This document shows positions 1,944 to 63,122 of a stretch of DNA of 64,000 bases, piece after piece (the first letter of the stretch is position 1; each line of letters starts with the position of its first letter). The DNA comes from Deltaproteobacteria bacterium (GTDB lineage Bacteria > Acidobacteriota > Thermoanaerobaculia > Multivoradales > JAHZIX01). Where the stretch lies: assembly GCA_022601195.1 (NCBI GenBank), contig JAHZIX010000045.1:628884-692883 (forward strand). The letters run 5' to 3'. The notes beneath the pieces were generated by a model that worked only from the letters and a program-made list of their open reading frames with translations, did no database searches and was not told where the DNA came from. Made by a program: the position numbers and the translations under genes.

Positions 1944-2840
1944 TCAGTCGAAGGCCTTCAAGATCTCCTCCGCCAGCCATCCACCGGACTCCTGAACGAA
2001 ATGACCCGACTCAGCGATCTCCAGGGGGGGCGGGCAGCCCTGAATGACCTTGCGCAGAGCTTGCATGACCGGAGGGCCCAGTACCGGGTCTTCCATGCCG
2101 ATGGCCATGAGGGTGGGGCCCGCCCACTGAGCCGACCACCACCTAGCTGCTCGCCGGGAAAGGGCGGCACCCGGTGCGTCCGGATGGTCCGGAACCAGGT
2201 CTGGAAACCGCCGCACTCCGGCTTTGTAGCGAATGTCCGGAAAGGGTGCATCGTAAGCGGCGAGCTCCCGAGCAGAAAGATCGGGGCAGGATCGTCCCAT
2301 GAGGCGTCCGATGGCCATGTCCGGGTTTTTGGCACTCCAGGCTCGCCAAGCCAAGAAGGCCGGCGGCAAGGCAGTTTCTCCGGTGGCGAGAGAGGTGTTC
2401 ATCACCACCAATCTGGAGTAGCGCTGGGCATCATCCATGGGGATCGTCAAGCCGAGGAGTCCTCCCCAATCCTGAGCCACCAAAGTGATGTTAGAGAGGC
2501 CCAGTCGCTCGACGAAGGTGATCAGCGAGGCACGGTGAAACTCGAAGGTGTAGACGCTTTCATCAGTGGGCTTATCGGAGCGTCCGAAGCCGAAGAAATC
2601 GGGAGCCACCACCCGATGTCCAGCGGCGGTAAAAACCGGCAGCATCTTGCGGTAGAGGTAGCTCCAGGTGGGTTGGCCGTGCAAACAGAGAAACACCGTC
2701 TCGGCATCTCTGGGCCCCTCGTCCAAGTAGTGCATTCGCAGCCCATCGAAACCCGGCAGGTCCTCCAGGTAGTGAGGTTCGAAAGGAAAATCCGGCAGGT
2801 CCGAAAAGAAATTCTCGGGGGTTCTCAAAATCTCATTCAC
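1944..2840 (-). CDS. haloalkane dehalogenase-like alpha/beta hydrolase
   Basis: N-terminal FPFEPHYLE...GLRMHYLDEGP, nucleophile elbow VAQDWGG, 298 aa. GTG start at 2838-2840 overlaps the stop of the upstream giant gene (GTGAATGA). Confidence 0.75.
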   Translation of the reverse strand: MNEILRTPENFFSDLPDFPFEPHYLEDLPGFDGLRMHYLDEGPRDAETVFLCLHGQPTWSYLYRKMLPVFTAAGHRVVAPDFFGFGRSDKPTDESVYTFEFHRASLITFVERLGLSNITLVAQDWGGLLGLTIPMDDAQRYSRLVVMNTSLATGETALPPAFLAWRAWSAKNPDMAIGRLMGRSCPDLSARELAAYDAPFPDIRYKAGVRRFPDLVPDHPDAPGAALSRRAARWWSAQWAGPTLMAIGMEDPVLGPPVMQALRKVIQGCPPPLEIAESGHFVQESGGWLAEEILKAFD

Positions 2841-5800
2841 GAGGAGTCCTTTCGTTGACTGCCGTGGCGGGAAGAGTGGTTCGGAGGTCGATCTTTCGGA
2901 GAGCGCCCACCAGGTCTCTGAGTTGGTCGAGATGTTTCAAGGTGCCATCTAGCTGGTCGCTGAGCAGGCGGTCCTTTTTGGCCTCCGAGCCCTGAACGCG
3001 GCGTCCGAGGCTCCTCACAGCAGGAATGAGTGCCTCTTCGATGGCTCCCACCAAGCGACCCATGAGGTCGTGAACTCCGGGGCCGAGGGTTTGGACGATC
3101 TCTCGGCCTCGAGGCGCCTCGGCGAGGGTGGCCAGTGTCTTGGAGAGGCTTTCCAAATAAGGGGAAAAATCCTGCGCCGGAGCGGCTGCCAGGTTCGTTG
3201 CCAGCCCTGTAGTCGCCGACGGGTCGACGGCGGGGACTCGGTTCTTGAGCTCCGCAGCTGCTCCGGAGAGGACCCGAACGACCTTCTCCATTCCCTTCGA
3301 CAGCGAAGCCAAATGGTGGTCGAGTTTCTGGAGGGCTTCCCCGCCAGCGAGCTCTTCCCCTGTTGAGGATTCTCGAGACAGGGCCAGGCTGGCTTGGATC
3401 TGTTCCAAGATCGGCGTTAAGGTCGCTGCCAGTTCCTCGGTACCCCTATCTTCTGCATCACTCTCTTCCGAACGAGCCGTCTCGCGGGTCGATTCTGCTA
3501 CCTCCTTCAGCTGGGAGCCGATCTCGCCCAAGCGGTCCGACATCAGGCCCAGCTGACCCACCACTCGTGTCGAAGGATCGTCTTCAGCTCCGCCCATGGA
3601 GAGCACGCGGGCAAAGCCCCGCTTGATCTCCGCCCACCGCGCTTGCTCCTCCGGGGTCAGGCGTCCGCGCAACTCCGCTAGCTTGAGGAGGTTGTGCTCC
3701 GCCCCCGTGGTCAGAGTTTGGGCTTCCCCCAAGTAGTGATTGTCGAGAAGGACCTCGAGCTCGTCGTCGTTCATCACCGGCACGATCTTCTCCGCCAACT
3801 TGTTCATGTTGCGGTAGCTGCCCTGGAGTTGAAAGGGAGGCTCGGTGCGAAAAGCCGGATCTTGAGCTGCAGAGAGAATGTACTGGCGATTGACTTCCAG
3901 AAGCACCTGCTGGACGGCTAGGAACTTCCTCAGGACGGCGAGAATCTCCCCCACTTCCGCCGCGGAGTATCCATGGGAAAGTTGATCCGCCTGTATCTGT
4001 TCTCCCTGGGCCATGCGCACCAGCAAGTAGGTATCCTGCGGATCCCGGGTTCCCAGGGGAGCCGTCACCGGGTTGGAGGTGAGAGCATTCTCTAGGTAGC
4101 TGAGGGCGAAAGTCTCCTCCTTGCCTTCCAGAATGTCACCCAGATTGTAGACATCCGCTCGGTTTGCCAACATGTCCGGGACCTGGAACTTATCTCCCGA
4201 TTCCGTGTAGGGGTTGCCGGCCATACAAACAGCGAAGCGCTTTCCCCTCAGGTCATAGGCCTTGGTTTGCCCTTGCCAGACTCCCTCCACCTTACGCTGA
4301 GCGTCGCACAGGGAGATGAACTTCTGTAGCAACTCCGGATGGGTATGCTGAATGTCATCCAAGTAGAGCAACACGTTGTTGCCCATCTCGAAAGAGAGAT
4401 TCATCTTCTCCACCTCGCGCCGGGCAGTCGCATTGGGAGCTTCCGCAGGGTCGAGGGAATGGACGCCGTGCCCAAGGGCCGGGCCGTTGATCTTCATGAA
4501 GACCAACCCCAGGCGATTGGCAACGTACTCCATCAAAGTTGTCTTGCCGTATCCCGGGGGAGAAATGAGCAGCAACAGGCCCATCTGATCGGTTCGCTTG
4601 TCGTCTCCAAGGGCACCCATCTGCTTGGCCAGGTTGTCCCCGACTAGTGGTAGGTAGACCTCGTTCAAAAGACGATTGCGAACGAAGGCGCTCATCACCC
4701 GAGGGCGGTACTCTTCGAGTCGCAATTGTCGGCGGTTCTCTTCCAGCGCTTGGTGTCGGCATTCCTGAAAACGCCGGAAGGCAGGAACTTGCGAGTGGCG
4801 GAAAGCCCCGAGGCGCGCCAGGAATTCATCGAGGCGAAGGGTCATCTTACGCTGAGAGATGCGCCCATGTTGGCCCAGGAGGCCCTCCACTTCGCCCTGT
4901 AGCAGGGCGCTCGAGGGTTCCCGAGACAGGAGGCCTTCGGTGAGAATCAGCGCCACCGCACCATCGACTTCCGCTGCTAGACCCAAGGGGACGTCCTTAG
5001 CCGCTGGCTTAGTCTCGTCGTTGGGACTCTTGGTGGAAGTGCCAGAAACTTGGTGCCTTTGATCCAAATAGGCTTCGATCCAGGCCTTGGCGAGGGAGTA
5101 GCGCTGGGGCAGGTGATCCACCAGCTCGCTCATATCCGCTTGAAACTCTCTCCAAGATCCGGTCTTTTCGAGGTGTACTTCGAAGCTTCGCCGCAGATCC
5201 TGGGCTCCTGCGCTGAGCACGAAAGTAGAGGATTCCTGGCAAATCTCTTCGAAGAGATATTGCCCTGCGGAGCGCTGGTCTTCAGGGTCCAAATGGAAAC
5301 CCAGCTGCTCGGAAAAAGTGCCGATGGCCGTGGCGAGCTCGGAACAGAAACGGACGATCTCCGGACTGTGGGCGAAGGCTCGACGGAGGCGCGCCAGGCT
5401 TTGAGCCCTTCGTTGCCAACGCTTTTTGGCCAGCTCATCTTTGAAACAGGCCCAAAACAGAACCGCGGCAGCTCTCGGTTTCGGCGCAAAGCGGAGAAGC
5501 CCGGCGGTAGCGTAGAGACCGAGGAGCTTGGATAGGATAAGGGTCGCGTCCGCATCGTGGAGGCCTCTTTCATAGCCTTCGTCATAGCGCTCCGCGGAGA
5601 ACCTTCGGACTCGTTCCAAAAGGCTCTCCTGGGACAATGCTGCCTGTTGCAGAACCTGCGGAGACAGCCCTTCGGACTCTTCTTCAGCTGCCGCCAGGAG
5701 GCAAGCCGCCAAATACTCTCCTCGGTAGACCTGGGGGTTCTCAGAGACCAGGTGCTGATCCCACAGTGGCCGCAACTCTTCGAGCTGGGAGTCTTCCAGA

Positions 5801-8550
5801 GGTTGATGGAAGTCCGTGCCCGTGAGGTGAAGCTCTAGATGACCTTCACGGGGAATCAGGGTCAAGTCCAGGTTCTGGGTGTTGACGCTGAAACGATGAC
5901 GCCCCAATTTGAGAACATCTGTGCCCTCTTCGAAGATGTCCTGGCGGTCCCGTAGGGAGCGAACCGCCTCCTGCCGGGCGCCTTTGAGGCGCGCATCTAC
6001 CTCGTCCGCTCGCACGCTGTCGCCCAATTCCCGAAGCCGGGAGGAGAGGTCTCGCAATCGGCTCACCATAGCGTCCGCAGCGAAGTAGCTGTTGAGCTCG
6101 TCACCTTCCGAAAGCGTCGCCGCTCGCCGGGCGATGCCTCCGAGAATGCGCTCCGCTGCTTGCATCAAATGGTTGGCTCGGCGTTGACGTTCGTCCAGCA
6201 GGCGTTGCTTCTTGGCGCTGAAAGCCTCGTAGACGTCTTCCCGCTTGGCTCCCAGCTGCTCCAGGTATTCCTCGAACTCACTGAAGCGACTCTCTAACTC
6301 CTCCAACTGCAGCATGAGCTTCGAAAGTTGCTCGTCACAGGCTTCCGGGGTGTCGCCGAGACTCAGGGCGCCGGCAACGCTCTGGTTGAAGAGTTGAAAC
6401 TGGACCGCGAACTCGGCGACCATTTCATGGGAGAGGAGCTCTTTGCGTCGCGCTTCTTGGAGGGCTCGGCACCGGTTGAGGCCACCGAGAACTTCCGACA
6501 CCCCCTCTAGAATGCCGGTCCGCACGGTGGCGTCGTCGATATCGAGGCCACTTACCACTTCTGCCAGCAGGTCAAACCCGGAGCTAAGGCTGTCGATGGA
6601 TTCTCGAAGCGGTCGGGCCTCGCTGACCTTCTGAACCACCTCTATCTCTTGCTCTAGCTCTTTGAGTCGCCGGTGAAAGGGAGCAAAGGCGTCCTTCTCG
6701 ACCAGGAAAGAAACCGTCGCCTGGCTGACTTGGTCGAACCGATCCGAGACCTGCTCCTCTAGGGAATCGAGGCGCGACGGGTCGGCGTAGCGCAACTCTC
6801 GCAGTGAAATTAGCCTCCCTCTCTGCTGGCGCAACTGGCTCAGGCCTTCCACAAAGGGTTCGATGGCACTCCAATCTTTGGGGCGCATCTGGCCCAATAG
6901 GGTCTCCACCTCGACAGCTGCCTGGTCCACCGCTTCCGTGGCCTGACTGCGGATGGCTTCGACCTTCTCGAATTCATCGACGATCAACTCGGCGGTGGTA
7001 CGTACCTCCTTGAGCTGGTCCAGAGGCTGGCCCACCTCCGGGCTACCGAGCCAGAAGTAGCTGTCGATGACTCGGTTGGCGGAGGCGATGAGATCTTCGT
7101 AGACGAGGCGACTCGCCTGCTGCTCTTCCACCATGCGGCACAGGCTCAGGAGGTCCGAGATTCCCCGAACCAGATCGGCGTTGCCAACCTTCTCTAGATA
7201 GGAACCGGAAGAGGGAGCTGCCGCAGCGTGCTCGGCGCTGGAAAAGGGAGTCTGCCAAACCTGCATGGGGTGGACTCGGGTCGGCTCCTCCGAGAGACAG
7301 CGAAAAATGACCATCTTGCCGTCGTCGAAGAAAGTGAACCCATGGCATTCAACGGGGTTTGACACCTCTTTGCGGATCACGTTGTAGGGCAGCATGACGG
7401 TCCGTCCCTGCTCCCGGTGGTGAAAGAGGTACAACACATCTTCCCCATTGGGGGAGCGCAGGGCGTGTTTGAACTCCAGCTGCGCCACTTTCGCGTCGAA
7501 GGTTCGAGTCTCGCCGCTCTGAAGGTAAAAGCCTCCGGGAAAAATGATGCCGTGGTCCTCCGGCAGCTGCACACAGGCCTGACCGATGGCATCGATGCGC
7601 TGAACCTGCTTGGTGCGGGTATTAAAGACCAGATAGCGCCAGGTTTCCTCCCGGTAGGGCTTCACCTTGAGGAGGATTAGAACCCCCACCTGGGCGTAGT
7701 GAATCTCTGCATCGTCGAGACTCTGGTCGGCATCGTCCACCGGTTCCCGGTAGATTCCCAAACCGTCTTCTGTGTTGTTCTCGATCTTGATGGTGAGATC
7801 GCCGCCTACGGTCTCTACAAAAACCTCATCGAGAATCGTCACGTGGGGGTGCCGGCCGGACACAAAGTGATCCCGGGTGGTTGGAGTCCATTCGAAGTCG
7901 TGAGAAGGTGGGAACTGGTGATCCCGCTCTCCCCGATTGTCGATGTAAGTGATTCGACCGTCCGGTGCAATGGCCCAGCGAAAGACCTTGATGTCACCGA
8001 GGGTCGAACCAGCCTGAAAGACCGCTAGCAAACGATCCTCGACCCGGCGCAGCTGGAGCAACCGAGCCGACTTGTAGTACTGGTAGAGTTCCTCGAATTC
8101 CCGCAGGAAGGTCGGGTCGGCAAGAAAATCGGGTTGAGCGCCATCCTTCAGAGGGGTGAGAGAAAAGCCTTCCTGGGTCGCTTCGAAGGTGTGCAGGCTG
8201 AAGACGTCCCTGACCGTGGTCTGGTGGCGAAGACCTATGAAGACGTTGTAGCCAAACAGCAGCCGATCGCCCACCGCGGCGATGTCTCGGGGCACACAAT
8301 TGTTCTGCGTGCGGATCCGTTCCGAACCGACCACGGACATCTCGGTGCTGCCAAACAGCTCCAAGCGCTCTGTGTTGAGGCGATTCGCCGCAGTCTTGAG
8401 GTTTCCCGCTTGCTCCAGCAGCCGATCGCGGACAACTTCATAGGTGCCCTGCTCCAGGGTCGAGGTTTCGCTCATAGGCTCCCCCATCGCCCGCCGGGCT
8501 CCAAGAAGTTTTTCGGCCAGGAAGTACCTCTCCTCCCGAACCCGGGCCAT
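2833..8550 (-). CDS. giant (1905 aa) protein with a single MoxR/AAA_5-type AAA+ ATPase module; function unknown
   Basis: Walker A LISPPGYGKTT (+ strand ~4541-4570), Walker B VLLYLDDIQH (~4345-4380), AAA_5-like AGNPYTESGDKFQVPDMLANRADVY (~4150-4230). Beta-rich N-terminal region, ~800 aa predicted coiled coil (E/L/R/Q-rich heptads), alpha-helical C-terminus. GGGGGAG SD before ATG 8550. Confidence 0.6.
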   Translation of the reverse strand: MARVREERYFLAEKLLGARRAMGEPMSETSTLEQGTYEVVRDRLLEQAGNLKTAANRLNTERLELFGSTEMSVVGSERIRTQNNCVPRDIAAVGDRLLFGYNVFIGLRHQTTVRDVFSLHTFEATQEGFSLTPLKDGAQPDFLADPTFLREFEELYQYYKSARLLQLRRVEDRLLAVFQAGSTLGDIKVFRWAIAPDGRITYIDNRGERDHQFPPSHDFEWTPTTRDHFVSGRHPHVTILDEVFVETVGGDLTIKIENNTEDGLGIYREPVDDADQSLDDAEIHYAQVGVLILLKVKPYREETWRYLVFNTRTKQVQRIDAIGQACVQLPEDHGIIFPGGFYLQSGETRTFDAKVAQLEFKHALRSPNGEDVLYLFHHREQGRTVMLPYNVIRKEVSNPVECHGFTFFDDGKMVIFRCLSEEPTRVHPMQVWQTPFSSAEHAAAAPSSGSYLEKVGNADLVRGISDLLSLCRMVEEQQASRLVYEDLIASANRVIDSYFWLGSPEVGQPLDQLKEVRTTAELIVDEFEKVEAIRSQATEAVDQAAVEVETLLGQMRPKDWSAIEPFVEGLSQLRQQRGRLISLRELRYADPSRLDSLEEQVSDRFDQVSQATVSFLVEKDAFAPFHRRLKELEQEIEVVQKVSEARPLRESIDSLSSGFDLLAEVVSGLDIDDATVRTGILEGVSEVLGGLNRCRALQEARRKELLSHEMVAEFAVQFQLFNQSVAGALSLGDTPEACDEQLSKLMLQLEELESRFSEFEEYLEQLGAKREDVYEAFSAKKQRLLDERQRRANHLMQAAERILGGIARRAATLSEGDELNSYFAADAMVSRLRDLSSRLRELGDSVRADEVDARLKGARQEAVRSLRDRQDIFEEGTDVLKLGRHRFSVNTQNLDLTLIPREGHLELHLTGTDFHQPLEDSQLEELRPLWDQHLVSENPQVYRGEYLAACLLAAAEEESEGLSPQVLQQAALSQESLLERVRRFSAERYDEGYERGLHDADATLILSKLLGLYATAGLLRFAPKPRAAAVLFWACFKDELAKKRWQRRAQSLARLRRAFAHSPEIVRFCSELATAIGTFSEQLGFHLDPEDQRSAGQYLFEEICQESSTFVLSAGAQDLRRSFEVHLEKTGSWREFQADMSELVDHLPQRYSLAKAWIEAYLDQRHQVSGTSTKSPNDETKPAAKDVPLGLAAEVDGAVALILTEGLLSREPSSALLQGEVEGLLGQHGRISQRKMTLRLDEFLARLGAFRHSQVPAFRRFQECRHQALEENRRQLRLEEYRPRVMSAFVRNRLLNEVYLPLVGDNLAKQMGALGDDKRTDQMGLLLLISPPGYGKTTLMEYVANRLGLVFMKINGPALGHGVHSLDPAEAPNATARREVEKMNLSFEMGNNVLLYLDDIQHTHPELLQKFISLCDAQRKVEGVWQGQTKAYDLRGKRFAVCMAGNPYTESGDKFQVPDMLANRADVYNLGDILEGKEETFALSYLENALTSNPVTAPLGTRDPQDTYLLVRMAQGEQIQADQLSHGYSAAEVGEILAVLRKFLAVQQVLLEVNRQYILSAAQDPAFRTEPPFQLQGSYRNMNKLAEKIVPVMNDDELEVLLDNHYLGEAQTLTTGAEHNLLKLAELRGRLTPEEQARWAEIKRGFARVLSMGGAEDDPSTRVVGQLGLMSDRLGEIGSQLKEVAESTRETARSEESDAEDRGTEELAATLTPILEQIQASLALSRESSTGEELAGGEALQKLDHHLASLSKGMEKVVRVLSGAAAELKNRVPAVDPSATTGLATNLAAAPAQDFSPYLESLSKTLATLAEAPRGREIVQTLGPGVHDLMGRLVGAIEEALIPAVRSLGRRVQGSEAKKDRLLSDQLDGTLKHLDQLRDLVGALRKIDLRTTLPATAVNERTPRE

Positions 8551-52332: not shown

Positions 52333-55300
52333 TCAATGGACCTCCTGTCGAGATTCGACGGGTCGTTGATCCAGGGCTTGGCGGACCAGCTTGCCCAATT
52401 CGTGTACGACGAAAGGTTTTTGCATAGAGAAGTCTACGCACTCGGAAGAGACAGAACCAGTCAAGAAGCCGCTGACGACAATGACCGGTATCTTTGGGTT
52501 AGCGACCTTGGCTGCTTGAGCGAGTTCCGTTCCGGAAACTCCAGGCATGGTCTGATCTGTGATCAACAGATCATAGCCCATGGGCGAGTCTCGGAACGCC
52601 TGAAGGGCTTCAGTACCACTTGTCAGAACCTTCACATTGTAGCCAAGGCCTTCCAGTACCACCCCGAGCATTTCAGCGATATCTTCTTCGTCATCCACCA
52701 CCAGTATCCGCTCCCGGCCAGACAGGGCAACTTCTTCCGAAGAGGTTTCCTCTTCCAGGTCAGCCGTGCAGCAGGGAAGATAAACCTTGAATTCGGACCC
52801 CGCTCCAACTTCCGAGGAGACGAAAACCTTGCCGCCGATACCTTTGACGATACCGTGGACCACAGATAGCCCCAAGCCGGTACCGCTACCCACTTTTCGG
52901 GTGGTGAAGAAGGGGTCGAATATCTTGTCCAGCATCGACCGCTCCATCCCTTGGCCGGTGTCGCGAACGGTTAATCGAGCATTCTGCCCCACGGACAGCT
53001 CCGGATTGGCTTTCCGGTCGTTGGCCGTGAGGCATACCATCTCGAGGACGATCGTGAGCTTGCCCGGTTGTCCATCCATCGCTTGGTAGGCGTTAGTGCA
53101 GAGATTCATGATGACTTGGTGAACCTGGGTTGGGTCCGCCAAGACGGGAAGGCAATCAGGCTGAATGCTCTCTTGAATCTCAATGTTGGACGGTAGGGAA
53201 GGTCTCAACAATTCCAAGGCCTCCGCTACCACTGCCTGAACATGGATGGGGCGATGCTCCTGCTTCTCTTGATGACTAAAGGTAAGAATGTGACCAATGA
53301 GTTTCTTGGCTCTCTCCCCGGCCTTGATGACTCTTCGGAGGTAGTCGGAGGTTTCCGAGTGAGCCGGCAGAGTCTCCAGGGAAATGATCGTGTAGCCGAG
53401 AATGGACTGAAGGATGTTGTTGAAATCGTGGGCGATGCCTCCCGCCAAGGTGCCTATGGCATCCATTTTCTGGCTTAGGTAGAGCTGCTTCTCCAACTGT
53501 CTGACCTGAGTGATGTCGGTTCCGGAGCTAATCACACTGGCTTCAGAGCCTTCCTCGGTCGGTAGAGTACTGGTGTGCCAGGCTACGACTCTTCGACTTT
53601 GGTCGCAGGTGATCAACGAGTGTTCGGAGTATTCGTCCTCCTCGCAGTTCAGCATTCGGCGCCGAGCTTCTTCGCGGTCTTTCTCGGGAACAAAGTTGTC
53701 AAACCAGTCTTTTCCGATGATCTCGTGGTCTGAATACCCCAGCACTCGACAGCCCTTGCGGTTGATAGCGGCGACGGTGCCAGAGGGAGTCAAGGCCACC
53801 ATGAGTGTTTCAACCACCTCAAAGTAGGTCTGTGCTCTTTCCTTCTCCTGGTTCAGGGCCCGTTCTTTGGCGAGCCGTTCGGCCATCTCTCCCTTCAGAG
53901 CTTCGTTGGTACGGTTGAGCTCCGAGGCCCAACGCAGTTTTCTCGCTTGGGAGCGAAGTAGTAGAGCGACAGCAGCACCGATGGCCAGGCTGTAGAAGAG
54001 ATAGGCCCACTTCGTCTGCCAGGGTGCGGCTAGAGCTTCGACCTGAATACTGAGGCCGTCTTCATTCCACAGGCCGTCATTGTTGGAGGCCTTGACGCGG
54101 AACAAGTATTGGCCGGCGTCCAGATTGGTGTAGGTGGCCCTACGGCGGGTGCCCGCATCGACCCAATCCGGGTCGAATCCCTCCAGCTTGTGCATGTAGC
54201 GATTCTTCTCCGGTGCGGTGTAGTCGAGGGCCGAGAATTCGAACGCCACCACCCGGTCTTGGTGCGTCAGAGTTACCTCTCGGAGGTCCACGAGAGCTCC
54301 CTCCGGGGCGACCGCTTGGTTGAGTTTCAGAAATGCCGTGAGCACCACCGGAGGAGGGTGCTGATTGCCGCGGATCTCCGCTGGGAAAAAAGAGTTGAAG
54401 CCGTTGATGCCGCCAAAGAACATCTCTCCATTTCCCGCCCGAAAGACAGCAGCAAAGTTGAATTCGCCGCTTTGCAGGCCATGGCTCGCGTCGTAATTGA
54501 CCACAGTCCGCGTAGCCGGGTCCAGCTTTGAAAGCCCTCCATTGGTGCTGACCCAAAGAGCTCCGGAATCGTCCCAGAGAGTTGCGTTGACGATTCCGCT
54601 GGGGAGCCCGTCCCGCTTGGTGAAGTGGCTAAATCGAACCGTTCCTTGTTCAAAGTCCTTTCTGTCCCACCGATTGAGGCCCCCTCCCTGAGTACCGAGC
54701 CAGAGGTTCCCGGCAGGGTCTTCATCCAGGCTCCAGATGTTGTCGCTACTCAGGCTCAAGGGGTCATCGGGGTCATGGCGATAGGAGGTGAAGGTCTTTG
54801 TTTCCGGATGAAAACGGTTGAGGCCTCCCCCGTCTGTACCCACCCAGAGGTGACCTCGGCGGTCTTCCAAGAGTGTGAGGACACGATCGCTGCCCAAGCT
54901 GCTGGAGTCCCCTGGGTCGTGCCGAAACCTCTCAAAGGTCCCGGAAGGGCTGTCCATACGGTTGAGGCCCCCTCGATAGGTGCCGACCCAGAGATGTTCT
55001 GAGCTGTCCTCGAATACCACCGTCACCGCGTTGGAAGATAGGCTTCGAGGATTCGATGGATCGTTTTGGAAGCGGTCGAAGCTCTGGCCGTCCTCCGCCA
55101 ACCTATTCAAGCCACCACTGATCGTGCCGGCCCAAAGGGTGCCCCCACGATCCGAAAACAAGGACATGACACGGTCGTCGCTGAGGCTGCGTGGGTCGGA
55201 AGCCTGATGACGGAAGTGTTTGAAGGTCCCGTCCGCAGGGTCCATGAGATTGAGGCCACCTCCATGGGTACCGATCCAGATCTTCCCGTCGAGGGCCTCG

Positions 55301-56634
55301 CTGAAGGAAGTCACGTAGTTATTGCTCAGTCCCTTCAGGTTTCCTGGCCAGCTGCGAACATGGCGAAAAGTCGGGTTAAAGGTGTTCCACTTGTTGAGGC
55401 CGCCAAATGTGCCCACCCAGAGAACGCCACCGGCATCCTGAAACAAAGAAAGCACCGTGTTGTGACTCAGAGTGAAGGAGTCGACGGGGTTGTGCTGATA
55501 TCGCACGAAGCTTTCCGTATCGGGGCGCCACTCGAGGAGCCCTTCGTCGGTGCCTATCCATAGGATCCCCTGTCGATCCTGAAAGATCGACCGGACGCCG
55601 TTTGCGGGCAGGCAGGTGGGATCATCGGGTTTGGCCCTGAAAGTGTCGAAGGTCCCCGTTTTCCGGTCTAAGCGGGACAGTCCGCTTTCGTAGGTCCCAA
55701 CCCAGAGAGTCTGGGAACTGTCTTCGAACACCGCCCTTACTTTGTTTCCACTCAGGGAGGTGGGGTCCTCAGGGTGGTGACGAAAGTGGGTGAAGGTTTC
55801 GCTGTCGGCTTCGAAGCGATCCAGGCCTCCCCCTTCGGAGCCGATCCAAAGTGTGCCCTCGCGGTCTCGGAAGATGCTTCGAATAGCATTGTGCCCAAGA
55901 CTCGAGGGGTCGTCGGGATGGTGAACAAATCGTTGGAACCGACCTGTTTCAGGGTCAAAGCGATTGAGGCCGCCACCGTCCGTGCCGACCCAGAACTGGC
56001 CTAGGCCATCGAGGTGTAGGGCTCTGACGCGGTTGTCGCTAAGGCTCGTTGGGTCAGAGGGATCGTGTTGAAATCGGGTGAAGCTTCCGGTAGCTCTATC
56101 CAGCAGATTCAAGCCACCGCCATCGGTGCCGACCCAGAGGCGGCCTTCTTGATCCACGAGTACAGCCTTGATCGAGTCATGAGCTAGGGAAGACGGGTCT
56201 CTGGGGTCGTGGAGGAAGGTGTGGAACTCATAGCCATCATAGCGATTGAGGCCTTCCTGGGTTCCGAACCACATAAAGCCGTCGTGGTCCTGAGTCGTGC
56301 TAGTGACAAAAGCTTGGGAAAGACCACTTTCGAGCGAAATTCTCTGAAAGCGGAGGCTCTTCCCTGGTTCCTCCGAGGCGGTCGCCCCAAAACCTAGGGA
56401 GAGAGCCAACGAGATAGAGAGAGCGATAGGAAGGGATCCTCTGGTCCACCTAGAAGGTTCTTTCACCTTTCCCTGTGGGAATCGCTTCGGCCTCGCTCCG
56501 CCCCACGGCTTGGTAGAAATCGCTTCCCGGTGGGGTCCAGCTGTCGGTCGAATATTGCCAAAGGCGTAGGGAAGCATAGGGTATTTCTGGACTTGAGTGG
56601 GGCTAGGAGCCATTCCAGACCGCGGAGTCTCCAA
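52333..56634 (-). CDS. hybrid sensor histidine kinase with a large periplasmic two-component-regulator beta-propeller (Reg_prop/Y_Y_Y) sensor, PAS, HisKA, HATPase and C-terminal receiver
   Basis: About 14 repeats of ~45 aa ending L(W/F)(V/I)GT..GGL.R(F/L). One TM (WAYLFYSLAIGAAVALLL). H-box AHDFNN. G-box GTGLGLS. REC ILVVDDEEDI...D. Confidence 0.8.
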   Translation of the reverse strand: METPRSGMAPSPTQVQKYPMLPYAFGNIRPTAGPHREAISTKPWGGARPKRFPQGKVKEPSRWTRGSLPIALSISLALSLGFGATASEEPGKSLRFQRISLESGLSQAFVTSTTQDHDGFMWFGTQEGLNRYDGYEFHTFLHDPRDPSSLAHDSIKAVLVDQEGRLWVGTDGGGLNLLDRATGSFTRFQHDPSDPTSLSDNRVRALHLDGLGQFWVGTDGGGLNRFDPETGRFQRFVHHPDDPSSLGHNAIRSIFRDREGTLWIGSEGGGLDRFEADSETFTHFRHHPEDPTSLSGNKVRAVFEDSSQTLWVGTYESGLSRLDRKTGTFDTFRAKPDDPTCLPANGVRSIFQDRQGILWIGTDEGLLEWRPDTESFVRYQHNPVDSFTLSHNTVLSLFQDAGGVLWVGTFGGLNKWNTFNPTFRHVRSWPGNLKGLSNNYVTSFSEALDGKIWIGTHGGGLNLMDPADGTFKHFRHQASDPRSLSDDRVMSLFSDRGGTLWAGTISGGLNRLAEDGQSFDRFQNDPSNPRSLSSNAVTVVFEDSSEHLWVGTYRGGLNRMDSPSGTFERFRHDPGDSSSLGSDRVLTLLEDRRGHLWVGTDGGGLNRFHPETKTFTSYRHDPDDPLSLSSDNIWSLDEDPAGNLWLGTQGGGLNRWDRKDFEQGTVRFSHFTKRDGLPSGIVNATLWDDSGALWVSTNGGLSKLDPATRTVVNYDASHGLQSGEFNFAAVFRAGNGEMFFGGINGFNSFFPAEIRGNQHPPPVVLTAFLKLNQAVAPEGALVDLREVTLTHQDRVVAFEFSALDYTAPEKNRYMHKLEGFDPDWVDAGTRRRATYTNLDAGQYLFRVKASNNDGLWNEDGLSIQVEALAAPWQTKWAYLFYSLAIGAAVALLLRSQARKLRWASELNRTNEALKGEMAERLAKERALNQEKERAQTYFEVVETLMVALTPSGTVAAINRKGCRVLGYSDHEIIGKDWFDNFVPEKDREEARRRMLNCEEDEYSEHSLITCDQSRRVVAWHTSTLPTEEGSEASVISSGTDITQVRQLEKQLYLSQKMDAIGTLAGGIAHDFNNILQSILGYTIISLETLPAHSETSDYLRRVIKAGERAKKLIGHILTFSHQEKQEHRPIHVQAVVAEALELLRPSLPSNIEIQESIQPDCLPVLADPTQVHQVIMNLCTNAYQAMDGQPGKLTIVLEMVCLTANDRKANPELSVGQNARLTVRDTGQGMERSMLDKIFDPFFTTRKVGSGTGLGLSVVHGIVKGIGGKVFVSSEVGAGSEFKVYLPCCTADLEEETSSEEVALSGRERILVVDDEEDIAEMLGVVLEGLGYNVKVLTSGTEALQAFRDSPMGYDLLITDQTMPGVSGTELAQAAKVANPKIPVIVVSGFLTGSVSSECVDFSMQKPFVVHELGKLVRQALDQRPVESRQEVH

Positions 56635-56774
56635 AGCCTGTCCACAGGCGGTGGATTTCCTAAACTCATTCCTTCCTCTTGAGTCATGCCGGGTAGCACA
56701 AGAGCCTCATTCTTCCACGGTTGTAGGCTTTTCGAGAAATCCGCAATCCTCGATTTTCTTTAAGCGAAGAGACG

Positions 56775-58400
56775 CTATTCCGGGTCGACCCAATGGCCCA
56801 CCCTGGAGCTCTCCGAGAGAGCTTCGCTCCATGCTTCAGAGCCATTCCAAGCGAAAGCCCCGTTCCAGGCAAACGCCCCATTCCAAGCGAAGGCCCCGTT
56901 CCATGCGAAGGCGCCATTCCATGCGAAGGCTCCATTCCAAGCAAAGGCCCCGTTCCAAGCGAAGGCTCCATTCCAGGCGAAGGCATCGACACCTTCCAGG
57001 TAGAAGCTACCGTCTTCAGCTTCTCTAGCCAGGCCGACGAAGTGCTGCTCTCCAAGGAGCTCCTCTTCGATGTCGAGACCGGTGTTTGCGCAGCCATACT
57101 GCTCCGACTGAACCGCATCGAAGGCATCTGCAACCCCTGCTCCTTGTTGAAAAATGCTGTAGCCCAACGTCCCATCTTCCTTGAGGGCTGGCCGGGCAGA
57201 AGACATGAGACGGCATTTGACATCATTCGGGCTCAAGCTCGGCTCGGCCTCCAACATCAGGGCAGCGATACCGGAGGTCACGGCAGCGGCCTGCGAAGTC
57301 CCCGACATCTCGAAAAAGCTTCCGCTGGCCCAGAACTCTGGGTGTTCAGAAGCGAGTTGTGCGTGATCCGGCATGTAGGCGAGGATATGGCCGCCCGGAG
57401 CCACTAGGTCTGGTTTCACAAAGCCCTCGGCTGTCGGTCCGGCGGCTGAGAAAGTGGTGAGTTTGTCGTCTGATAGATCCTCGGGAGTGTAGGAATCCGT
57501 CATAGCGCCCACCGAGATGACATAGGGCACGTTACCGGGAGCACCTATGGTCACCGGGTCCGGTCCTCCATTACCCGCCGCGGCCACCACCACAATGCCG
57601 CTCTGCCAGGCCTTCATGACAGCTAAGTTCATCGGGTCATCCCAATAGGCGGAGCGAGGAGTGGCGCTGAAAGACAGATTGACGATGCGGATGCCATAGG
57701 CTTCCTTATTTGAAACGACCCAGTCGAGGGCTCGAATGACGTCCGCATAGGTACCCCGCCCATCGCTGTCAAAGGCTTTCACGGAGACGAGATCCGCGTT
57801 GGGCGCGATGCCGTTGAATTCTCCGGAATCCAGACCCACGGCACTGCTCAGGCTGGCGCCAACGATATGAGTACCGTGGCCGTTGTCGTCATCGGAGGTG
57901 TAGTACACCTCTCGGTCGTCAATGGCATTGTATTGCGCTAGGAGCCGAGTCCGATTTCTCGTGTTCCTGGTGAGGGACTTGTGGGCACTGATTCCAGTAT
58001 CAATGAAGGCAATCGTGACCCCTGAGCCCGTTAGACCTTCATCGTGAACCTCATCAGCTCGAATCAGGCTGGGGAAATTTGTCGAGGGGCAGCTTTCGCC
58101 GTGGCCTGCAGATTTCACGGGACTATTCACGAAAATACGGAGGTTACCTGGCATCTCCTGCAGGGCCACGCGCTGCCTCTCGGTAACGACCGCCGCCACT
58201 GAATGGATAATGCCTAGCTCATGGGTCGTCGTGCCCCCCACGGCTGCGACGGCCAGGCGAGCTTGGGCTACATCCTGTGCCTGGACGAGAATGGCAATGG
58301 GCGTTGGATCGACTCGAGGGGCACTCGAGGGAGAGCCTGCTATCCAAGAGGCCAGGAGTAGCAAGAGCACGGACAAGAGAGAGTTGTTTCTGAACCACAT
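56775..58400 (-). CDS. secreted subtilisin-like serine protease (S8) with C-terminal (AFAWNG)x8 repeat
   Basis: Signal peptide. Catalytic D (AFIDTGI), H (HGTHIVG), S (GTSQAAAVTSG). Confidence 0.8.
   Translation of the reverse strand: MWFRNNSLLSVLLLLLASWIAGSPSSAPRVDPTPIAILVQAQDVAQARLAVAAVGGTTTHELGIIHSVAAVVTERQRVALQEMPGNLRIFVNSPVKSAGHGESCPSTNFPSLIRADEVHDEGLTGSGVTIAFIDTGISAHKSLTRNTRNRTRLLAQYNAIDDREVYYTSDDDNGHGTHIVGASLSSAVGLDSGEFNGIAPNADLVSVKAFDSDGRGTYADVIRALDWVVSNKEAYGIRIVNLSFSATPRSAYWDDPMNLAVMKAWQSGIVVVAAAGNGGPDPVTIGAPGNVPYVISVGAMTDSYTPEDLSDDKLTTFSAAGPTAEGFVKPDLVAPGGHILAYMPDHAQLASEHPEFWASGSFFEMSGTSQAAAVTSGIAALMLEAEPSLSPNDVKCRLMSSARPALKEDGTLGYSIFQQGAGVADAFDAVQSEQYGCANTGLDIEEELLGEQHFVGLAREAEDGSFYLEGVDAFAWNGAFAWNGAFAWNGAFAWNGAFAWNGAFAWNGAFAWNGAFAWNGSEAWSEALSESSRVGHWVDPE
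56845..56990. repeat. eight tandem 18-bp units encoding AFAWNG; DNA units differ at synonymous sites while the peptide is invariant
   Basis: Read directly on the minus-strand coding sequence: units such as gccattccaagcgaaagc / cccgttccaggcaaacgc / cccattccaagcgaaggc ... Confidence 0.85.
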
Positions 58401-58715: not shown

Positions 58716-59126
58716 CTACATGCCAAATTTTCCCCGCGCCTGCTCCAAAACGCTTTCGTCGACCACGCCATGGCCATTCGTCTGAGCGAAATGTTCGACT
58801 CCCTGTTTAGCCATGGGACGGACGAAATCAGGAATGTTCTCCAGACGAGCCAGAGCTTCCGGTGTCCAGGCGATTCCCTCGGAGGGTGTCGCCTCCATCT
58901 GAGCGACCACATCGGAGAAGGGGCATTTTCCTGGGGTGTTATCCGCGGCTGGGCCAATCTTGACTCCGAGGGATTGGACCATCTGGGTCTCGGAGGGGTT
59001 TGTCAGCATGGCGATTTGAGAGGAGCAGATCGGGCATTGGAAAACGGCGCTCAAGGTACCACTCTGCGGCGTTTCCGTCGCCTGTAGTTTCATTGCTTCG
59101 TCGCACTGCACACAGAGAAATTTCAT
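58716..59126 (-). CDS. zinc-ribbon + PCP_red-domain protein (136 aa)
   Basis: CxxC...CxxC (CVQCDE...CPICSS). C-terminal WTPEALARLENIPDFVRPMAKQGVEHFAQTNGHGVVD resembles the C-terminal domain of protochlorophyllide reductase subunit B. Confidence 0.5.
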   Translation of the reverse strand: MKFLCVQCDEAMKLQATETPQSGTLSAVFQCPICSSQIAMLTNPSETQMVQSLGVKIGPAADNTPGKCPFSDVVAQMEATPSEGIAWTPEALARLENIPDFVRPMAKQGVEHFAQTNGHGVVDESVLEQARGKFGM

Positions 59127-59995
59127 GATCGTCTTCCTTCCAGAGCTAGAACCAGGTTTTGAGCGACCGCCTCGATAGCCTGCGCGGAGGGGCGGTCTTG
59201 GCTTTCGGCCTCGGGCCAGCCGCGATCGCAGAGCTCGGCTAGGGCCGGATCAAAGGGAATCCGTCCTAAAAGAGGCAATGGAATCGGCGTCGTGGCAGCG
59301 GGAAAAAGAGGCTTGATTTCATCGCAATCTTGGCAATAGTAGCCGGCCATGTTCTCTACGTAGCCGACCATGTCTGCGCCCGCAGCTTCCAGCGCCGCGA
59401 CAGAACGAGCCACCACCCCTCGAGCGACATCCGAGGGAACCGTAACCAGGGCAAACAGCGTATCGGCAGGCAGAAAGTCCGCGAACTGAACACTCCGCTC
59501 TGCTCCGGGTGGTAGATCGAAGAGCAGATAGTCGAGAGACCCCCAATCTAGGCTTCCCATGAGCTGGCCTAGAAAGGCAAACTCCTTGGTGGAGCGCCAA
59601 ACGTGCTCGTCCCCTTGTGAGACTGTCTCCAAGGAAACTGGCCGGTCGGCAGGGACCAGGCTGCCCATGGAGACGACCCCGATTCCATCCGGCCGACGAG
59701 GCACTGACAAGCCACGGGCACCAGGAACCCAGGGCGCTGCCGTGAGACCGGCGAGGTGAGCTTGGCAGGGCCCATTGAAGTCCGCATCGAGGATCGCCAC
59801 GGTAGCTCCACCGGCTCGTAGGGCCTGAGCGAGGGCCATGGTCACTGTGCTCTTGCCGACTCCCCCTTTGCCAGATCCTACGGCAACCCGGAAACGAACG
59901 CCCGCCAGGGCGCTCTGAATCGCTTCCAGTTGGGCTTCAACTTGGGCTACGACGTTGGAACCGCCGTCTCCCTGAATATCGAAATAGCTCTTCAT
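59123..59995 (-). CDS. Mrp/NBP35-family P-loop ATPase (iron-sulfur cluster carrier, ApbC-like)
   Basis: Deviant Walker A VGSGKGGVGKST, Mrp C-terminal CxxC (YYCQDCDE). ATG at 59995 (MKSYFDIQGD) preferred; the track ORF extends to 60058. Confidence 0.8.
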   Translation of the reverse strand: MKSYFDIQGDGGSNVVAQVEAQLEAIQSALAGVRFRVAVGSGKGGVGKSTVTMALAQALRAGGATVAILDADFNGPCQAHLAGLTAAPWVPGARGLSVPRRPDGIGVVSMGSLVPADRPVSLETVSQGDEHVWRSTKEFAFLGQLMGSLDWGSLDYLLFDLPPGAERSVQFADFLPADTLFALVTVPSDVARGVVARSVAALEAAGADMVGYVENMAGYYCQDCDEIKPLFPAATTPIPLPLLGRIPFDPALAELCDRGWPEAESQDRPSAQAIEAVAQNLVLALEGRRS

Positions 59996-60094
59996 GGTGT
60001 GGTCATCACGGATTTGTCTTCTGTCTCTCGTTTCTCTTCTGCCCACTCCCTCCCCCATCGCCGTGATGCCGGGTATGTTGGCGGTGGGCTAGGC

Positions 60095-61034: not shown

Positions 61035-63122
61035 CTAGTTCTCGTTGAGCTCGCGTCGTTTCTTTTCCATCGCGGACATGAGGCCGACCTCATTGAGGGC
61101 CGGGCCAGGAGAGGAGTCCGCCGCATCGACGGGACAGGATTCCTCCGCCGGGGTCTCCGGGGCCGCTTCCGCGGCTGGCTTGGTAGCTTCCCCGCCGCCG
61201 TATTGGCCAAGCATTTCGGCCATCATTTGCTTGCCGTATTCGATGCCATCTTCTACCAGGGCGAGATCGATCTCGACGGCCCCTCTTTCCTCGGCAACCT
61301 CCTCGATACGGCTCTGGGTGCGGTCCCGCATGAAGCCCGAAGGGACGCGCAAGACTCTCTCGATGGCACCCTCTGTCCAGTCAAAGGCTGAAATCAGAGG
61401 AACATTCTTGGAATCTCGAGCGAGGATACGTAGCTCCGGATCTTCCTCGAGGGAGGTCGCCGTTACCGGTTCCGGGCTCGCGATGGAGTTGTCATCTGAC
61501 TCTGCGATCTCCGGGCGCACTGGAGGGGTGTAGAGAACGCCAGTCTCTTCCTCCACGAAGCGTTGGGCAAAGTCGAGGGTGATGGGATCGAGCTTCTTGA
61601 CCCGGGCTGATTTTTCGATCCGGGCTTTGGCTCGACGTCGCTGGTATTTGTCTTCGATGGAGCGTAGGGCGCCTCGGGCGTCCTTGGTCCAACGCAGCTT
61701 GCGGCCATCGTAGGTGATTTCTTCTTCGATACCCCCTTCGGACCGGGCGATCTTCTCGAGAATCTCCTGAGACACCGTTTCGAAGTCTTCTGCGTTGCAA
61801 ACGGTGCACTTGGCGGGATCTGGAACGCGGGCGGCAACGCCGCACTGCTTGCAGATTGCCACCGGCTCCCGGCTCGCTTTGTCGAGGGCTAGAGCCTCCG
61901 CCAGCTTGGTGGTGGATTTGCCGGTTTGCTTCGGCATAAAGCGCTCCATAGCCTCTGTCACCAAGTCACTGGTCACGACGCTATGCCCTTTTTCTAGAGC
62001 GAGTCGGAGAATTGCGGTCTTAGCGATACCGAGCACCATTTCTGGAACCCGCACCATGCGTGCCTCCGCCTCTTCCGTCCAATGGATGCTCTCTTCCGCC
62101 TTGAGATCGATTTCCGGGGTGACTTCAGAGGTGGTCAGCAGTACGTCGCAAGGGCTGAAGCGAAGCAGGTTCTCGGTATTGCTGCCCAAGCCTTCGTAGC
62201 CATCTTCCCGGTGTACGCCGGTCCGGCCCATGATCATGAGCCAGGGGTTGGTTTTGCGGGCATGATCGAGGACCTTCTGGAAGGCCTTGCCATCCAGAAG
62301 GGTCTTGGTGACTTCCAAGCCTTCCTCTCGCACCATGGTCTCAGCTACGTTGAGGTGGCTTTGGTAGATCTCCGCCAGACCGGTATCGATAATCTCTTCG
62401 TGGAGCTGGTTTTGCTCTTCGAAGCGGAAAATCTTCGCAGCCTTGTCCGTCAAGACCTCGACGATTCCCTTGAACACGGCATAGTGCAAATAGGGATCGT
62501 AGACGCCGATGACTTCGACCTTCTTGTTGAAGCGCTTGGCCATCTCGACGCCCGTCATCAGAGACCCAAAGGATTGGGGACTACCGTCGACACAAACCAG
62601 AATCGTGTCGCTTTCAACTTCCCCCTTCTTGGGAAGATTCTTGACCACCCAGACGTCTCGATCCGCTTCCTGGGCGACGCTGCGGCAGACGGCACCCAAC
62701 TGGCTATCTTTCGTCCGGCCGATGCCGACAGCTCCAAGAACCACCAGGTCGTAGCTGCTCTCGCCGATGTCCTTGAGGATCTCGACGGTGTGCTTGCCGT
62801 CCATCATCTTGCGCTCGCACTCGAGGCCGTTTTTCTGGCACTGCTCATCCATAGACTGCAGGTAGCAGTCGGAAATCAGCTCCAGTCCCATGGTGATCAG
62901 GCTGTCGTGAATCTTTCGCTGGCGATGGAGCTCATTCTCTACCAGATACTCTTCCGGCAGGGTGAACTCCATCTGGCGAAAACGATAGTCGTGCATTTTG
63001 GCGGCGTAGACATGGCAGCCAACCAGCTTCGATTGGTACTCCTTACCCAGGCGCACGGCGCAATCGATGGCACGATTGGAATGGGGCGAATTGTCGACCG
63101 GAACATAAATCGTTTCGTACAT
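61035..63122 (-). CDS. tandem universal-stress-protein (UspA x2) domains fused to PCP_red - zinc ribbon - PCP_red
   Basis: Two Usp-like modules (IYVPVDNSPHS...; ILVCVDGSPQS...), each followed by VVLGAVG / MIMGRTG. PCP_red-like IHWTEEAEARMVRVPEMVLGIAKTAILRLALEKGHSVV and FDWTEGAIERVLRVPSGFMRDRTQSRIEEVAEERGAVEI flank CKQCG...CTVCN. Confidence 0.6.
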   Translation of the reverse strand: MYETIYVPVDNSPHSNRAIDCAVRLGKEYQSKLVGCHVYAAKMHDYRFRQMEFTLPEEYLVENELHRQRKIHDSLITMGLELISDCYLQSMDEQCQKNGLECERKMMDGKHTVEILKDIGESSYDLVVLGAVGIGRTKDSQLGAVCRSVAQEADRDVWVVKNLPKKGEVESDTILVCVDGSPQSFGSLMTGVEMAKRFNKKVEVIGVYDPYLHYAVFKGIVEVLTDKAAKIFRFEEQNQLHEEIIDTGLAEIYQSHLNVAETMVREEGLEVTKTLLDGKAFQKVLDHARKTNPWLMIMGRTGVHREDGYEGLGSNTENLLRFSPCDVLLTTSEVTPEIDLKAEESIHWTEEAEARMVRVPEMVLGIAKTAILRLALEKGHSVVTSDLVTEAMERFMPKQTGKSTTKLAEALALDKASREPVAICKQCGVAARVPDPAKCTVCNAEDFETVSQEILEKIARSEGGIEEEITYDGRKLRWTKDARGALRSIEDKYQRRRAKARIEKSARVKKLDPITLDFAQRFVEEETGVLYTPPVRPEIAESDDNSIASPEPVTATSLEEDPELRILARDSKNVPLISAFDWTEGAIERVLRVPSGFMRDRTQSRIEEVAEERGAVEIDLALVEDGIEYGKQMMAEMLGQYGGGEATKPAAEAAPETPAEESCPVDAADSSPGPALNEVGLMSAMEKKRRELNEN

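Follow-up and report, generated by a model that had tools for sequence, protein, structure and literature searches.

A tandem aromatic-hexapeptide tail on a secreted S8 subtilase belongs to a widespread, uncatalogued accessory module

Why would a secreted protease end in eight copies of the same hexapeptide, encoded by DNA units that differ from one another? This question is raised by an S8 subtilase gene in a 64,000-nucleotide stretch of contig JAHZIX010000045.1 (assembly GCA_022601195.1), a genome deposited as Deltaproteobacteria bacterium. The whole of this stretch is referred to here as the window, and all positions are those of the window. The C-terminal AFAWNG array of the subtilase is one atypical dialect of a widespread, old and uncatalogued accessory module. 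Its repeat region is composed of the following elements:

56841–56984, minus strand: eight perfect AFAWNG hexapeptide units, residues 473–520 (translation of the open reading frame, ORF)
56823–56840, minus strand: ninth, degenerate unit, SEAWSE, residues 521–526, with the invariant W kept in register
56778–56822, minus strand: terminal motif ALSESSRVGHWVDPE, corresponding to the family end motif 'LTE..SIN.WV.QE' (family consensus)

The protein C-terminus reads ...EGVD-(AFAWNG)x8-SEAWSE-ALSESSRVGHWVDPE, followed by the stop codon. The initial annotation had placed the repeat at 56845–56990, which agrees with our positions within a few bases, and had described eight 18-bp units with an identical peptide and differences at wobble sites. 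Indeed, Tandem Repeats Finder delimited the array at 56842–56984 (period 18, 7.9 copies, 83% matches, no indels), and the variable columns of the 18-nt unit (3, 6, 9, 15 and 18) all five corresponded to third codon positions. AFAWNG was encoded by 8/8 units despite the DNA differences, with zero non-synonymous changes over 48 codons. The history of the array requires at least eight substitution events, every one of them synonymous (P ~ 3e-6 under neutrality, with 11 of the 54 possible single substitutions in an AFAWNG unit being synonymous). Moreover, the mean pairwise difference between units was 2.86 nt per 18, versus 2.87 expected at complete synonymous saturation (ratio 0.99), when codons were drawn at random according to the codon usage of the gene itself. 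The absence of non-synonymous change at full synonymous saturation, a pattern that recurs in many relatives, bears out the earlier proposal that selection keeps the peptide while the DNA drifts. The array is not an assembly artefact, a possibility which had also been raised, because mis-assembly or collapse would not restrict the differences to synonymous sites; neither recent slippage nor an artefact can explain the window array. The AFAWNG motif was not found in any other ORF of the window. Two plus-strand ORFs that overlap the repeat (56597–57028 and 56793–57407) are mirror-image by-products, such as a PSEGP/IPSE-rich ORF of 204 aa, and not genes; antisense or out-of-frame repeat ORFs of the same kind were seen in several other loci.

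The initial annotation had implied a peculiarity of one protein; instead, the module is common to a very large S8 family, with a conserved end motif and a frequent linkage to Reg_prop sensors. A full-length homology search returned 2149 relatives at E ≤ 1e-10, and the C-termini of the best 120 were read. At least three hexa-spaced tryptophans were present in 107 of the 121 proteins examined, and W[VIAL]x1-2[EQKM] formed the C-terminal end in 102 of the 121, with the consensus LxExxxxNxWVxQE. Tails comprised 5 to 13 units (median 7) of the consensus [GAS]-[YF]-x-W-[SNT]-[DNG], usually followed by this cap; position by position, the unit logo gave G/A/S (94%), Y/F (75%), L/V/A/P/I, W (100%), S/N/T (79%) and D/N/G/E. 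Many tails were heterogeneous or alternated between two units, and many homologs exhibited 12-residue super-repeats. A scan of one genome per species, in which ORFs were called mechanically and most genomes were metagenome-assembled, yielded at least 598 matching loci, of which the best 80 were analysed in detail. These belonged to Acidobacteriota/Thermoanaerobaculia, Chloroflexota, Gammaproteobacteria (Woeseiaceae, Halieaceae, Thiocystis), Gemmatimonadota and Acidimicrobiia, and included a homolog from a cultured strain, Thiocystis violacea DSM 208 (L053). Most of their tailed S8 genes likewise carried 5 to 13 consensus units, and tailed S8 paralogs often lay in tandem, with up to eight per array.

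The identical units found within a protein are under very strong purifying selection, and this is not limited to the window gene. In a first pass over the loci, 14% of 701 identical-peptide unit pairs were identical in DNA. Across 1804 such pairs, the saturation ratio within proteins averaged 0.80, ranging from 0.05 to about 1 or slightly above. Perfect peptide arrays with scrambled codons were also found in L004, L048, L058 and L072, and near-identical DNA units (ratios of 0.05 to 0.3), for example in L009, L005 and L016, corresponded to freshly expanded arrays. Units therefore arise by duplication and then stay constant as peptides through complete synonymous turnover. An alternative suggested earlier, that codon diversification limits recombination, was not supported, and the same holds for codon diversification as a means to suppress slippage: the ratio was 0.99 in the window and was not systematically above 1 elsewhere, and adjacent units were neither more nor less different in DNA than distant ones. 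A slight dip in DNA similarity was observed at a unit distance of 2.

Which unit is used depends on the genome and not on the protease lineage. At a catalytic identity of 55–70%, unit similarity was 0.60–0.65 within genomes versus 0.38–0.41 between genomes; four AYFWND paralogs of one metagenome-assembled genome, for example, shared 57–70% catalytic identity. Among triplets in which the catalytic domain was closer to a foreign protein, the tail still resembled that of the protein's own paralog in 784 cases versus 216 (13 versus 2 genomes, p = 0.007). Identical units common to paralogs had a saturation ratio of 0.77. Paralog tails are thus close to saturation at their synonymous sites, which rules out recent gene conversion as the source of shared dialects and indicates that selection maintains one unit throughout a genome. 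Apart from the window protein, the only AFAWNG carrier to come up was P0212 (a 4-kb contig of Joint Genome Institute sample 3300071325); it shared 39% catalytic identity with the window protein, yet carries (A)FAWNG units, consistent with units that do not follow the enzyme lineage. P0212 also had large insertions, a CAN motif without the Cys, and no WVxQE end.

Neither the period nor the position of the module was fixed. Within the single tail of P0212, AFAWNG hexamers gave way to FAWNG pentamers, and P0058 and P0083 consisted of GGFIWRD heptamers. In P0123, P0025 and P0041 the module was internal, with the repeats and a W-V-x-[DE][DE] cap followed by further domains. P0123 is a giant relative (1704 aa), with a propeller-like N-terminal region, the S8 domain, about 16 alternating GAFIWS/GAFAWA units, the sequence 'ISANDWVEDE' and about 570 residues of repeated immunoglobulin-like modules.

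Several further observations were made on the repeat loci. Same-strand arrays of four to eight tailed S8 paralogs were present in L012, L052, L054, L009 and L058, with nearly alike units and catalytic domains that were 55–70% identical. A second type of ending after the hexarepeats, '...D.DPL.......L.L.DD', was observed in L054 (ORFs from 0 and 5357), L058 (12021 and 14411) and L034 (11609); arrays with this ending start with a D-x-x-W-[SG]-A unit, and both ending types coexist in one locus. Finally, masked or unknown bases (X) occurred inside the hexarepeat arrays of L022 (ORF from 380) and L043 (ORF from 10401); some public assemblies thus break or are masked right in the repeats, and copy numbers there are unreliable.

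To our searches, the tail was absent from existing catalogues. Pfam, NCBIfam and PDB sequences gave no match to the window tail or to typical variants (GYLWSD), and literature searches on the repeat strings, on subtilases with a hexapeptide repeat and on Reg_prop with subtilisin found nothing relevant. A homology search with the tail only produced 675 word candidates, none of which scored, with composition correction as the probable cause; the family came from the full-length search. All carriers confirmed within the 80 loci and the window were S8 proteins. Apparent non-S8 carriers in this set came from pattern misses, from ORFs that were truncated or from the same DNA read out of frame, and the non-S8 matches inspected from a library of 1.84 billion proteins were unrelated low-complexity proteins.

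The protease itself is ordinary, and the tail is the new part. From the whole gene to its N-terminal and central elements, the precursor is organised as follows:

56775–58400, minus strand: gene for a 541-aa secreted S8 subtilase precursor with repeat tail (ORF, Pfam, AlphaFold2)
58320–58400, minus strand: Sec-type N-terminal signal peptide, approximately residues 1–27, MWFRNNSLLSVLLLLLASWIAGSPSSA (sequence and hydrophobicity; cleavage site inferred)
58086–58319, minus strand: I9-like N-terminal propeptide, approximately residues 28–105 (AlphaFold2 and Foldseek; approximate boundaries)
57168–58028, minus strand: S8 catalytic domain, residues 125–411 (Pfam)
56985–57092, minus strand: conserved structured extension CANTGLDIEEELLGEQHFVGLAREAEDGSFYLEGVD, residues 437–472, which joins the catalytic domain to the repeats (alignment and AlphaFold2)

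Residues 125–411 matched PF00082 (Peptidase S8) with 177.3 bits, versus a gathering cutoff of 21.8. The catalytic triad D134 (IDTG), H175 (HGTH) and S369 (GTSQA) and the oxyanion residue N277 were all present; the family alignment shows little or no variation at the D, the H, the N and the GTS motif. The signal peptide contained the only hydrophobic 19-mer of the protease. An AlphaFold2 model of the full-length protein, based on an 84-sequence alignment, showed a pro-subtilisin fold with a mean predicted local distance difference test (pLDDT) of 81.9 and was confident until about residue 472. Within it, the propeptide formed a beta-alpha-beta region (pLDDT 87–95) which Foldseek aligned to the pro-forms of Tk-SP and subtilisin E, and the extension, with the family consensus CANxGLDIxxDLAGxxHYGGPAxxDxxGxYY, reached a pLDDT of 84–93. 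The type VII secretion system mycosin model TIGR03921 scored 132.8 bits, below its curated cutoff of 278.75.

The closest solved propeptide and catalytic domain were those of Tk-SP from Thermococcus kodakarensis: the top Foldseek match of the whole model was ProN-Tk-SP (3afg, E 1e-30), and the closest PDB sequences, 9ues and 3afg (E ~ 1e-48), covered residues 113–436 only. The two proteins share secretion, a pro-subtilase organisation and an accessory region at the C-terminus, which in Tk-SP is a folded beta-jelly-roll domain; in the window protein, by contrast, the match ends at residue 436, and beyond it lie the extension of 36 residues, the hexarepeats with their Trp and the WVxQE cap.

The tail corresponds to no known fold and to no known sorting signal. 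The initial annotation had asked whether the tail might be a beta-solenoid, and structure prediction gave no confident fold: in the full-length model the tail had a pLDDT of 33–46, and AlphaFold2 of the tail alone, from a single sequence, returned a low-confidence chain (pLDDT 53–63) with one short strand per unit. The hexapeptide left-handed beta-helix family PF00132 gave no Pfam match, its [LIV]-[GAED]-x2-[STAV]-x consensus was absent from the units, and no confident helix of strands was predicted. The best result for PF12779 (WXXGXW), obtained with a typical GYLWSD tail, was E = 3 and 8.5 bits, below the cutoff of 18, and the window tail was not matched. PF00132, the RTX nonapeptide beta-roll and PF12779 resemble the tail as short tandem repeats with Gly/Asn/Asp turn residues, but the [LIV]-G-x4 and GGxGxD patterns of the first two are absent here, the period is not 9 and no model matched at threshold.

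The statement of the initial annotation that the tail matches no described sorting domain was, in turn, supported by the blank Pfam, NCBIfam and PDB searches. The NCBIfam and Pfam models of sorting signals (PEP-CTERM, LPXTG, GlyGly-CTERM and the C-terminal domain of type IX secretion system cargo) did not match the protein or typical tails, even at E ≤ 10. The protein ends in ...HWVDPE, with no hydrophobic helix or basic tail after the repeats. In addition, no sortase, exosortase or type IX secretion gene was present among the annotated window neighbours, and no candidate sorting enzyme was recurrent across the 80 loci. The variable period, the internal position in some proteins, the lack of a hydrophobic helix, the occurrence in phyla of both diderm and monoderm type and the lack of a nearby sorting enzyme argue against a sorting signal and against a solenoid of fixed geometry.

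The frequent linkage to sensors is exemplified by the downstream neighbour of the protease, the only Reg_prop/Y_Y_Y sensor in the window:

52333–56634, minus strand: hybrid sensor histidine kinase, separated from the protease gene by a 141-nt gap (Pfam and hydrophobicity)

Its Pfam domains were Reg_prop (206 bits, cutoff 20.4), Y_Y_Y (60.7 bits, cutoff 26.6), PAS, HisKA, HATPase_c and REC (Response_reg). The ectodomain, a Reg_prop double beta-propeller with Y_Y_Y, spans approximately residues 87–874, between hydrophobic segments at 68–86 and 875–897. Across the detailed loci, the next non-S8 gene was such a sensor in 17 of the 56 that could be evaluated, and a sensor lay within 10 kb in 31 of the 56. 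Sensor density was 0.34 per 10 kb around tailed S8 genes versus 0.02 in control flanks (about 16-fold). The sensor domain was constant across loci, and the output varied between a hybrid kinase and GGDEF. The statistical association between tail and sensor genes is real, yet the sensors are not dedicated to tailed proteases. A sensor subfamily dedicated to them was rejected, since a tailed S8 gene lay near only about 8 of the sensor's 80 closest metagenomic relatives, and covariation between unit and sensor was not significant (partial Mantel r = 0.175, p = 0.11). The sensor is probably a functional partner or regulator of the protease, and most likely the adjacent sensor, whether kinase or diguanylate cyclase, controls or reports on the extracellular proteolytic system.

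Bacteroides hybrid two-component system (HTCS) sensors and PorZ, whose known ligands are glycans, have the same double-propeller and Y_Y_Y extracytoplasmic architecture, and as in HTCS loci the gene adjoins that of a secreted hydrolase. HTCS differ in that the partner hydrolase is here a protease and not a glycosidase, and in that the output is here a hybrid histidine kinase without an AraC domain, or GGDEF. In the gammaproteobacterial loci L015, L030, L034, L058 and L022, REC-GGDEF-EAL genes flank the tailed S8 gene, together with a Reg_prop-Y_Y_Y-GGDEF sensor, an arrangement that suggests cyclic di-GMP (c-di-GMP) control of these proteases. In the Chloroflexota loci L003, L011, L019, L049, L050, L060 and L076, no propeller sensor was found, and large AAA_16/TPR genes (STAND, MalT-like) lay directly upstream of the tailed S8 gene.

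As to what the tail does, we favour the view that it is an array of equivalent short linear motifs. Tentatively, and with real reservations, we propose from the sequence that this array may be a multivalent aromatic-motif tether of the protease to a lineage-specific extracellular partner. The module is made up of the short folded extension, 5 to 13 tandem aromatic motifs (usually of 6 residues, occasionally 5 or 7) and the 'LTE..SIN.WV.QE' cap, and is carried by secreted, Tk-SP-like S8 proteases. Each unit would act as an equivalent short binding motif and so contribute to avidity; after Sec export and removal of the propeptide, the protease would remain attached through its tether to a repetitive extracellular partner proper to the lineage. 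Anchoring at the cell surface or to a glycan, as the initial annotation had suggested, appears plausible, and the most likely putative partner would be an envelope or matrix polymer (glycan) of the producer itself, as the most economical candidate; the adjacent propeller sensor, or another multi-site protein, would be an alternative. If the repetitive partner varied from lineage to lineage, this would account for units that are the same within a protein, shared by paralogs and different across genomes. The setting is extracellular, with a signal peptide on the protease and a sensor ectodomain between two hydrophobic segments. Repeat-based tethers to surfaces or polymers include the choline-binding/cell-wall-binding repeats (PF01473), the GW modules and the aromatic-rich adhesive loop of Vibrio Bap1. 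These are likewise aromatic-rich tandem repeats on secreted enzymes or adhesins, and their multivalent polymer binding is the mode proposed here; they differ in showing no sequence or model match to the tail and in the length of their units (about 20 or more than 80 residues, versus 5–7 here), and binding by the tail is only predicted.

Several points weigh against a tether. No gene of the window points to an obvious glycan partner. The unit resembles a good subtilisin substrate (small-aromatic-small/Pro-aromatic), AAPF-type peptides being subtilisin substrates, so that the tail might be cleaved and not retained. The low AlphaFold2 confidence could reflect a poorly aligned multiple alignment of the repeats instead of real disorder. 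The dialect analysis rests on 16 multi-paralog genomes and simple ORF calling. As for the sensor as a partner, its background density was taken from a different collection, about 45% of the evaluable tailed-S8 loci had no sensor within 10 kb, and a tailed S8 gene was nearby in only about 10% of the closest relatives of the sensor.

Among the other explanations is a built-in peptide cargo. The tail would be cut after each Trp by the protease or its paralogs, and the hexapeptide would serve as a lineage-specific signal read by the adjacent sensor, by which the secreted enzyme would signal how abundant and active it is. Several features fit such a role: all units are identical under strong selection and free of spacers, with aromatic residues at P1-like positions; the genome-specific dialects common to paralogs are pherotype-like; and the sensors, enriched 16-fold, adjoin on the same strand, have variable output modules and expose their ectodomain in the same compartment as the protease. 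We nevertheless consider this explanation unlikely, given the non-significant covariation of unit and sensor (r = 0.175, p = 0.11), the low reverse synteny (about 8/80), the Chloroflexota loci with cytoplasmic STAND/TPR regulators instead of a sensor, the many heterogeneous or two-unit alternating tails and the glycan nature of the known ligands of this sensor class. Yeast alpha-factor with Kex2, the Bacillus Phr peptides released by subtilisin, Epr or Vpr, and the fungal Kex2-processed repeat proteins are tandem-copy precursors associated with S8 proteases. They have in common with the tail many identical short tandem units, conservation at the peptide level, the involvement of an S8 protease and lineage-specific sequences; here, however, the repeats are fused to the protease, there are no spacers or dibasic sites, and the link to a sensor is only statistical. 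Tandem identical cores, as in multi-core precursors of pheromones or of RiPPs (peptides made on ribosomes and modified after translation), are present as the eight hexapeptides; no RiPP or pheromone processing or modifying enzyme and no transporter was found near the gene, and the window neighbours are unrelated. A related idea is slightly more doubtful still, namely that the unit is a genome-specific peptide 'code' on a public-good enzyme, read by the neighbouring sensor as the intact tail or as self-cleaved hexapeptides. If this were true, a cell would gauge its own active protease nearby and adjust its kinase or c-di-GMP output, the tail would be an autoinducer carried on a protease, and the Reg_prop sensor class would have its first peptide ligand.

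A C-terminal pro-region or pseudo-substrate, which would occupy or shield the active site or aid folding or export and be degraded on maturation with no later role, would also account for the substrate-like composition and for a tail that is flexible in AlphaFold2 models; C-terminal pro-sequences are known for secreted subtilases of the aqualysin type. This is improbable, as it leaves unexplained the uniformity of the units and the single dialect among paralogs with 55–65% catalytic identity, and as folded domains follow the tail in P0123, P0025 and P0041 and copy number ranges from 5 to 13. It is similarly doubtful that the tail is a beta-solenoid, beta-roll or amyloid-like self-assembling domain, possibly Ca2+-dependent, which would stabilise or oligomerise the protease. 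The strict periodicity, the aromatic/Asn/Asp/Gly composition, the 12-residue super-repeats with the slight similarity dip at unit distance 2 and the short strand per unit in the single-sequence prediction are in its favour, and stacked ladders of identical residues would favour uniform units; but pLDDT stayed at 33–46 in the full-length prediction and did not exceed 63 when the tail was modelled alone, the Hexapep, RTX and WXXGXW models did not match, a period that shifts to 5 inside the P0212 tail and is 7 elsewhere is hard to fit to one fixed geometry, and self-stacking alone needs no dialect shared by paralogs. A sorting or secretion signal for dedicated machinery (of exosortase, type IX secretion, sortase, rhombosortase or type I secretion type) is very unlikely. 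The C-terminal position and the sharply conserved W-V-x-Q-E end of most members would be expected of such a signal, but the protein has an N-terminal Sec signal, no hydrophobic helix or basic tail and no sorting-model match, the family spans diderm and monoderm-type phyla, the motif is internal in some proteins, and sorting-enzyme genes were neither present in the window nor recurrent in the 80 loci. As to a functionless slippage expansion or assembly artefact, the fresh arrays of L009, L005 and L016 (ratios of 0.05–0.3) do show that duplication creates units; the chance that it accounts for the tail is practically negligible, with window differences that are all synonymous at saturation and a module conserved over five phyla with an invariant W. 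The multivalent tether is the reading we retain, tentatively, among these.

The annotated neighbours in the window included LysM, aminotransferase, sulfotransferase, Mrp ATPase and PCP_red proteins. Directly upstream of the protease gene, a gene for a small Cys-rich PCP_red protein (58716–59126, minus strand) overlaps one for a Mrp/NUBPL-type P-loop ATPase (59123–60058, minus strand), and a USP-USP-PCP_red protein is encoded further upstream (61035–63122, minus strand). These PCP_red, Mrp and USP genes look like an Fe-S or redox-related cluster; this cluster was not recurrent beside the protease in other loci. A giant ATPase of 1905 aa (2833–8550, minus strand), in which DUF3686 (710 bits, 'ATPase involved in DNA repair') is combined with DUF7902 and AAA domains, is unrelated to the tail.

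In sediments and soils, secreted subtilases contribute greatly to protein turnover, and the tail-bearing lineages (Woeseiaceae, Thermoanaerobaculia, Anaerolineae and others) are abundant there. The tail occurs in hundreds of species, often in arrays of 5 to 8 paralogs, and the family databases, solved structures and literature searched hold no description of it. Whatever its function, the module merits a family model of its own, as the proteins that carry it are now annotated merely as 'AprX' or 'S8 peptidase'. Its signature is unusual, combining perfect peptide identity through complete synonymous turnover with units that track the genome and not the enzyme phylogeny, and it points to a specific, co-evolving extracellular partner. 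Its identification could provide a short, tunable, lineage-specific tag for tethering or signalling, and would reveal how bacteria retain or keep watch on costly extracellular enzymes.

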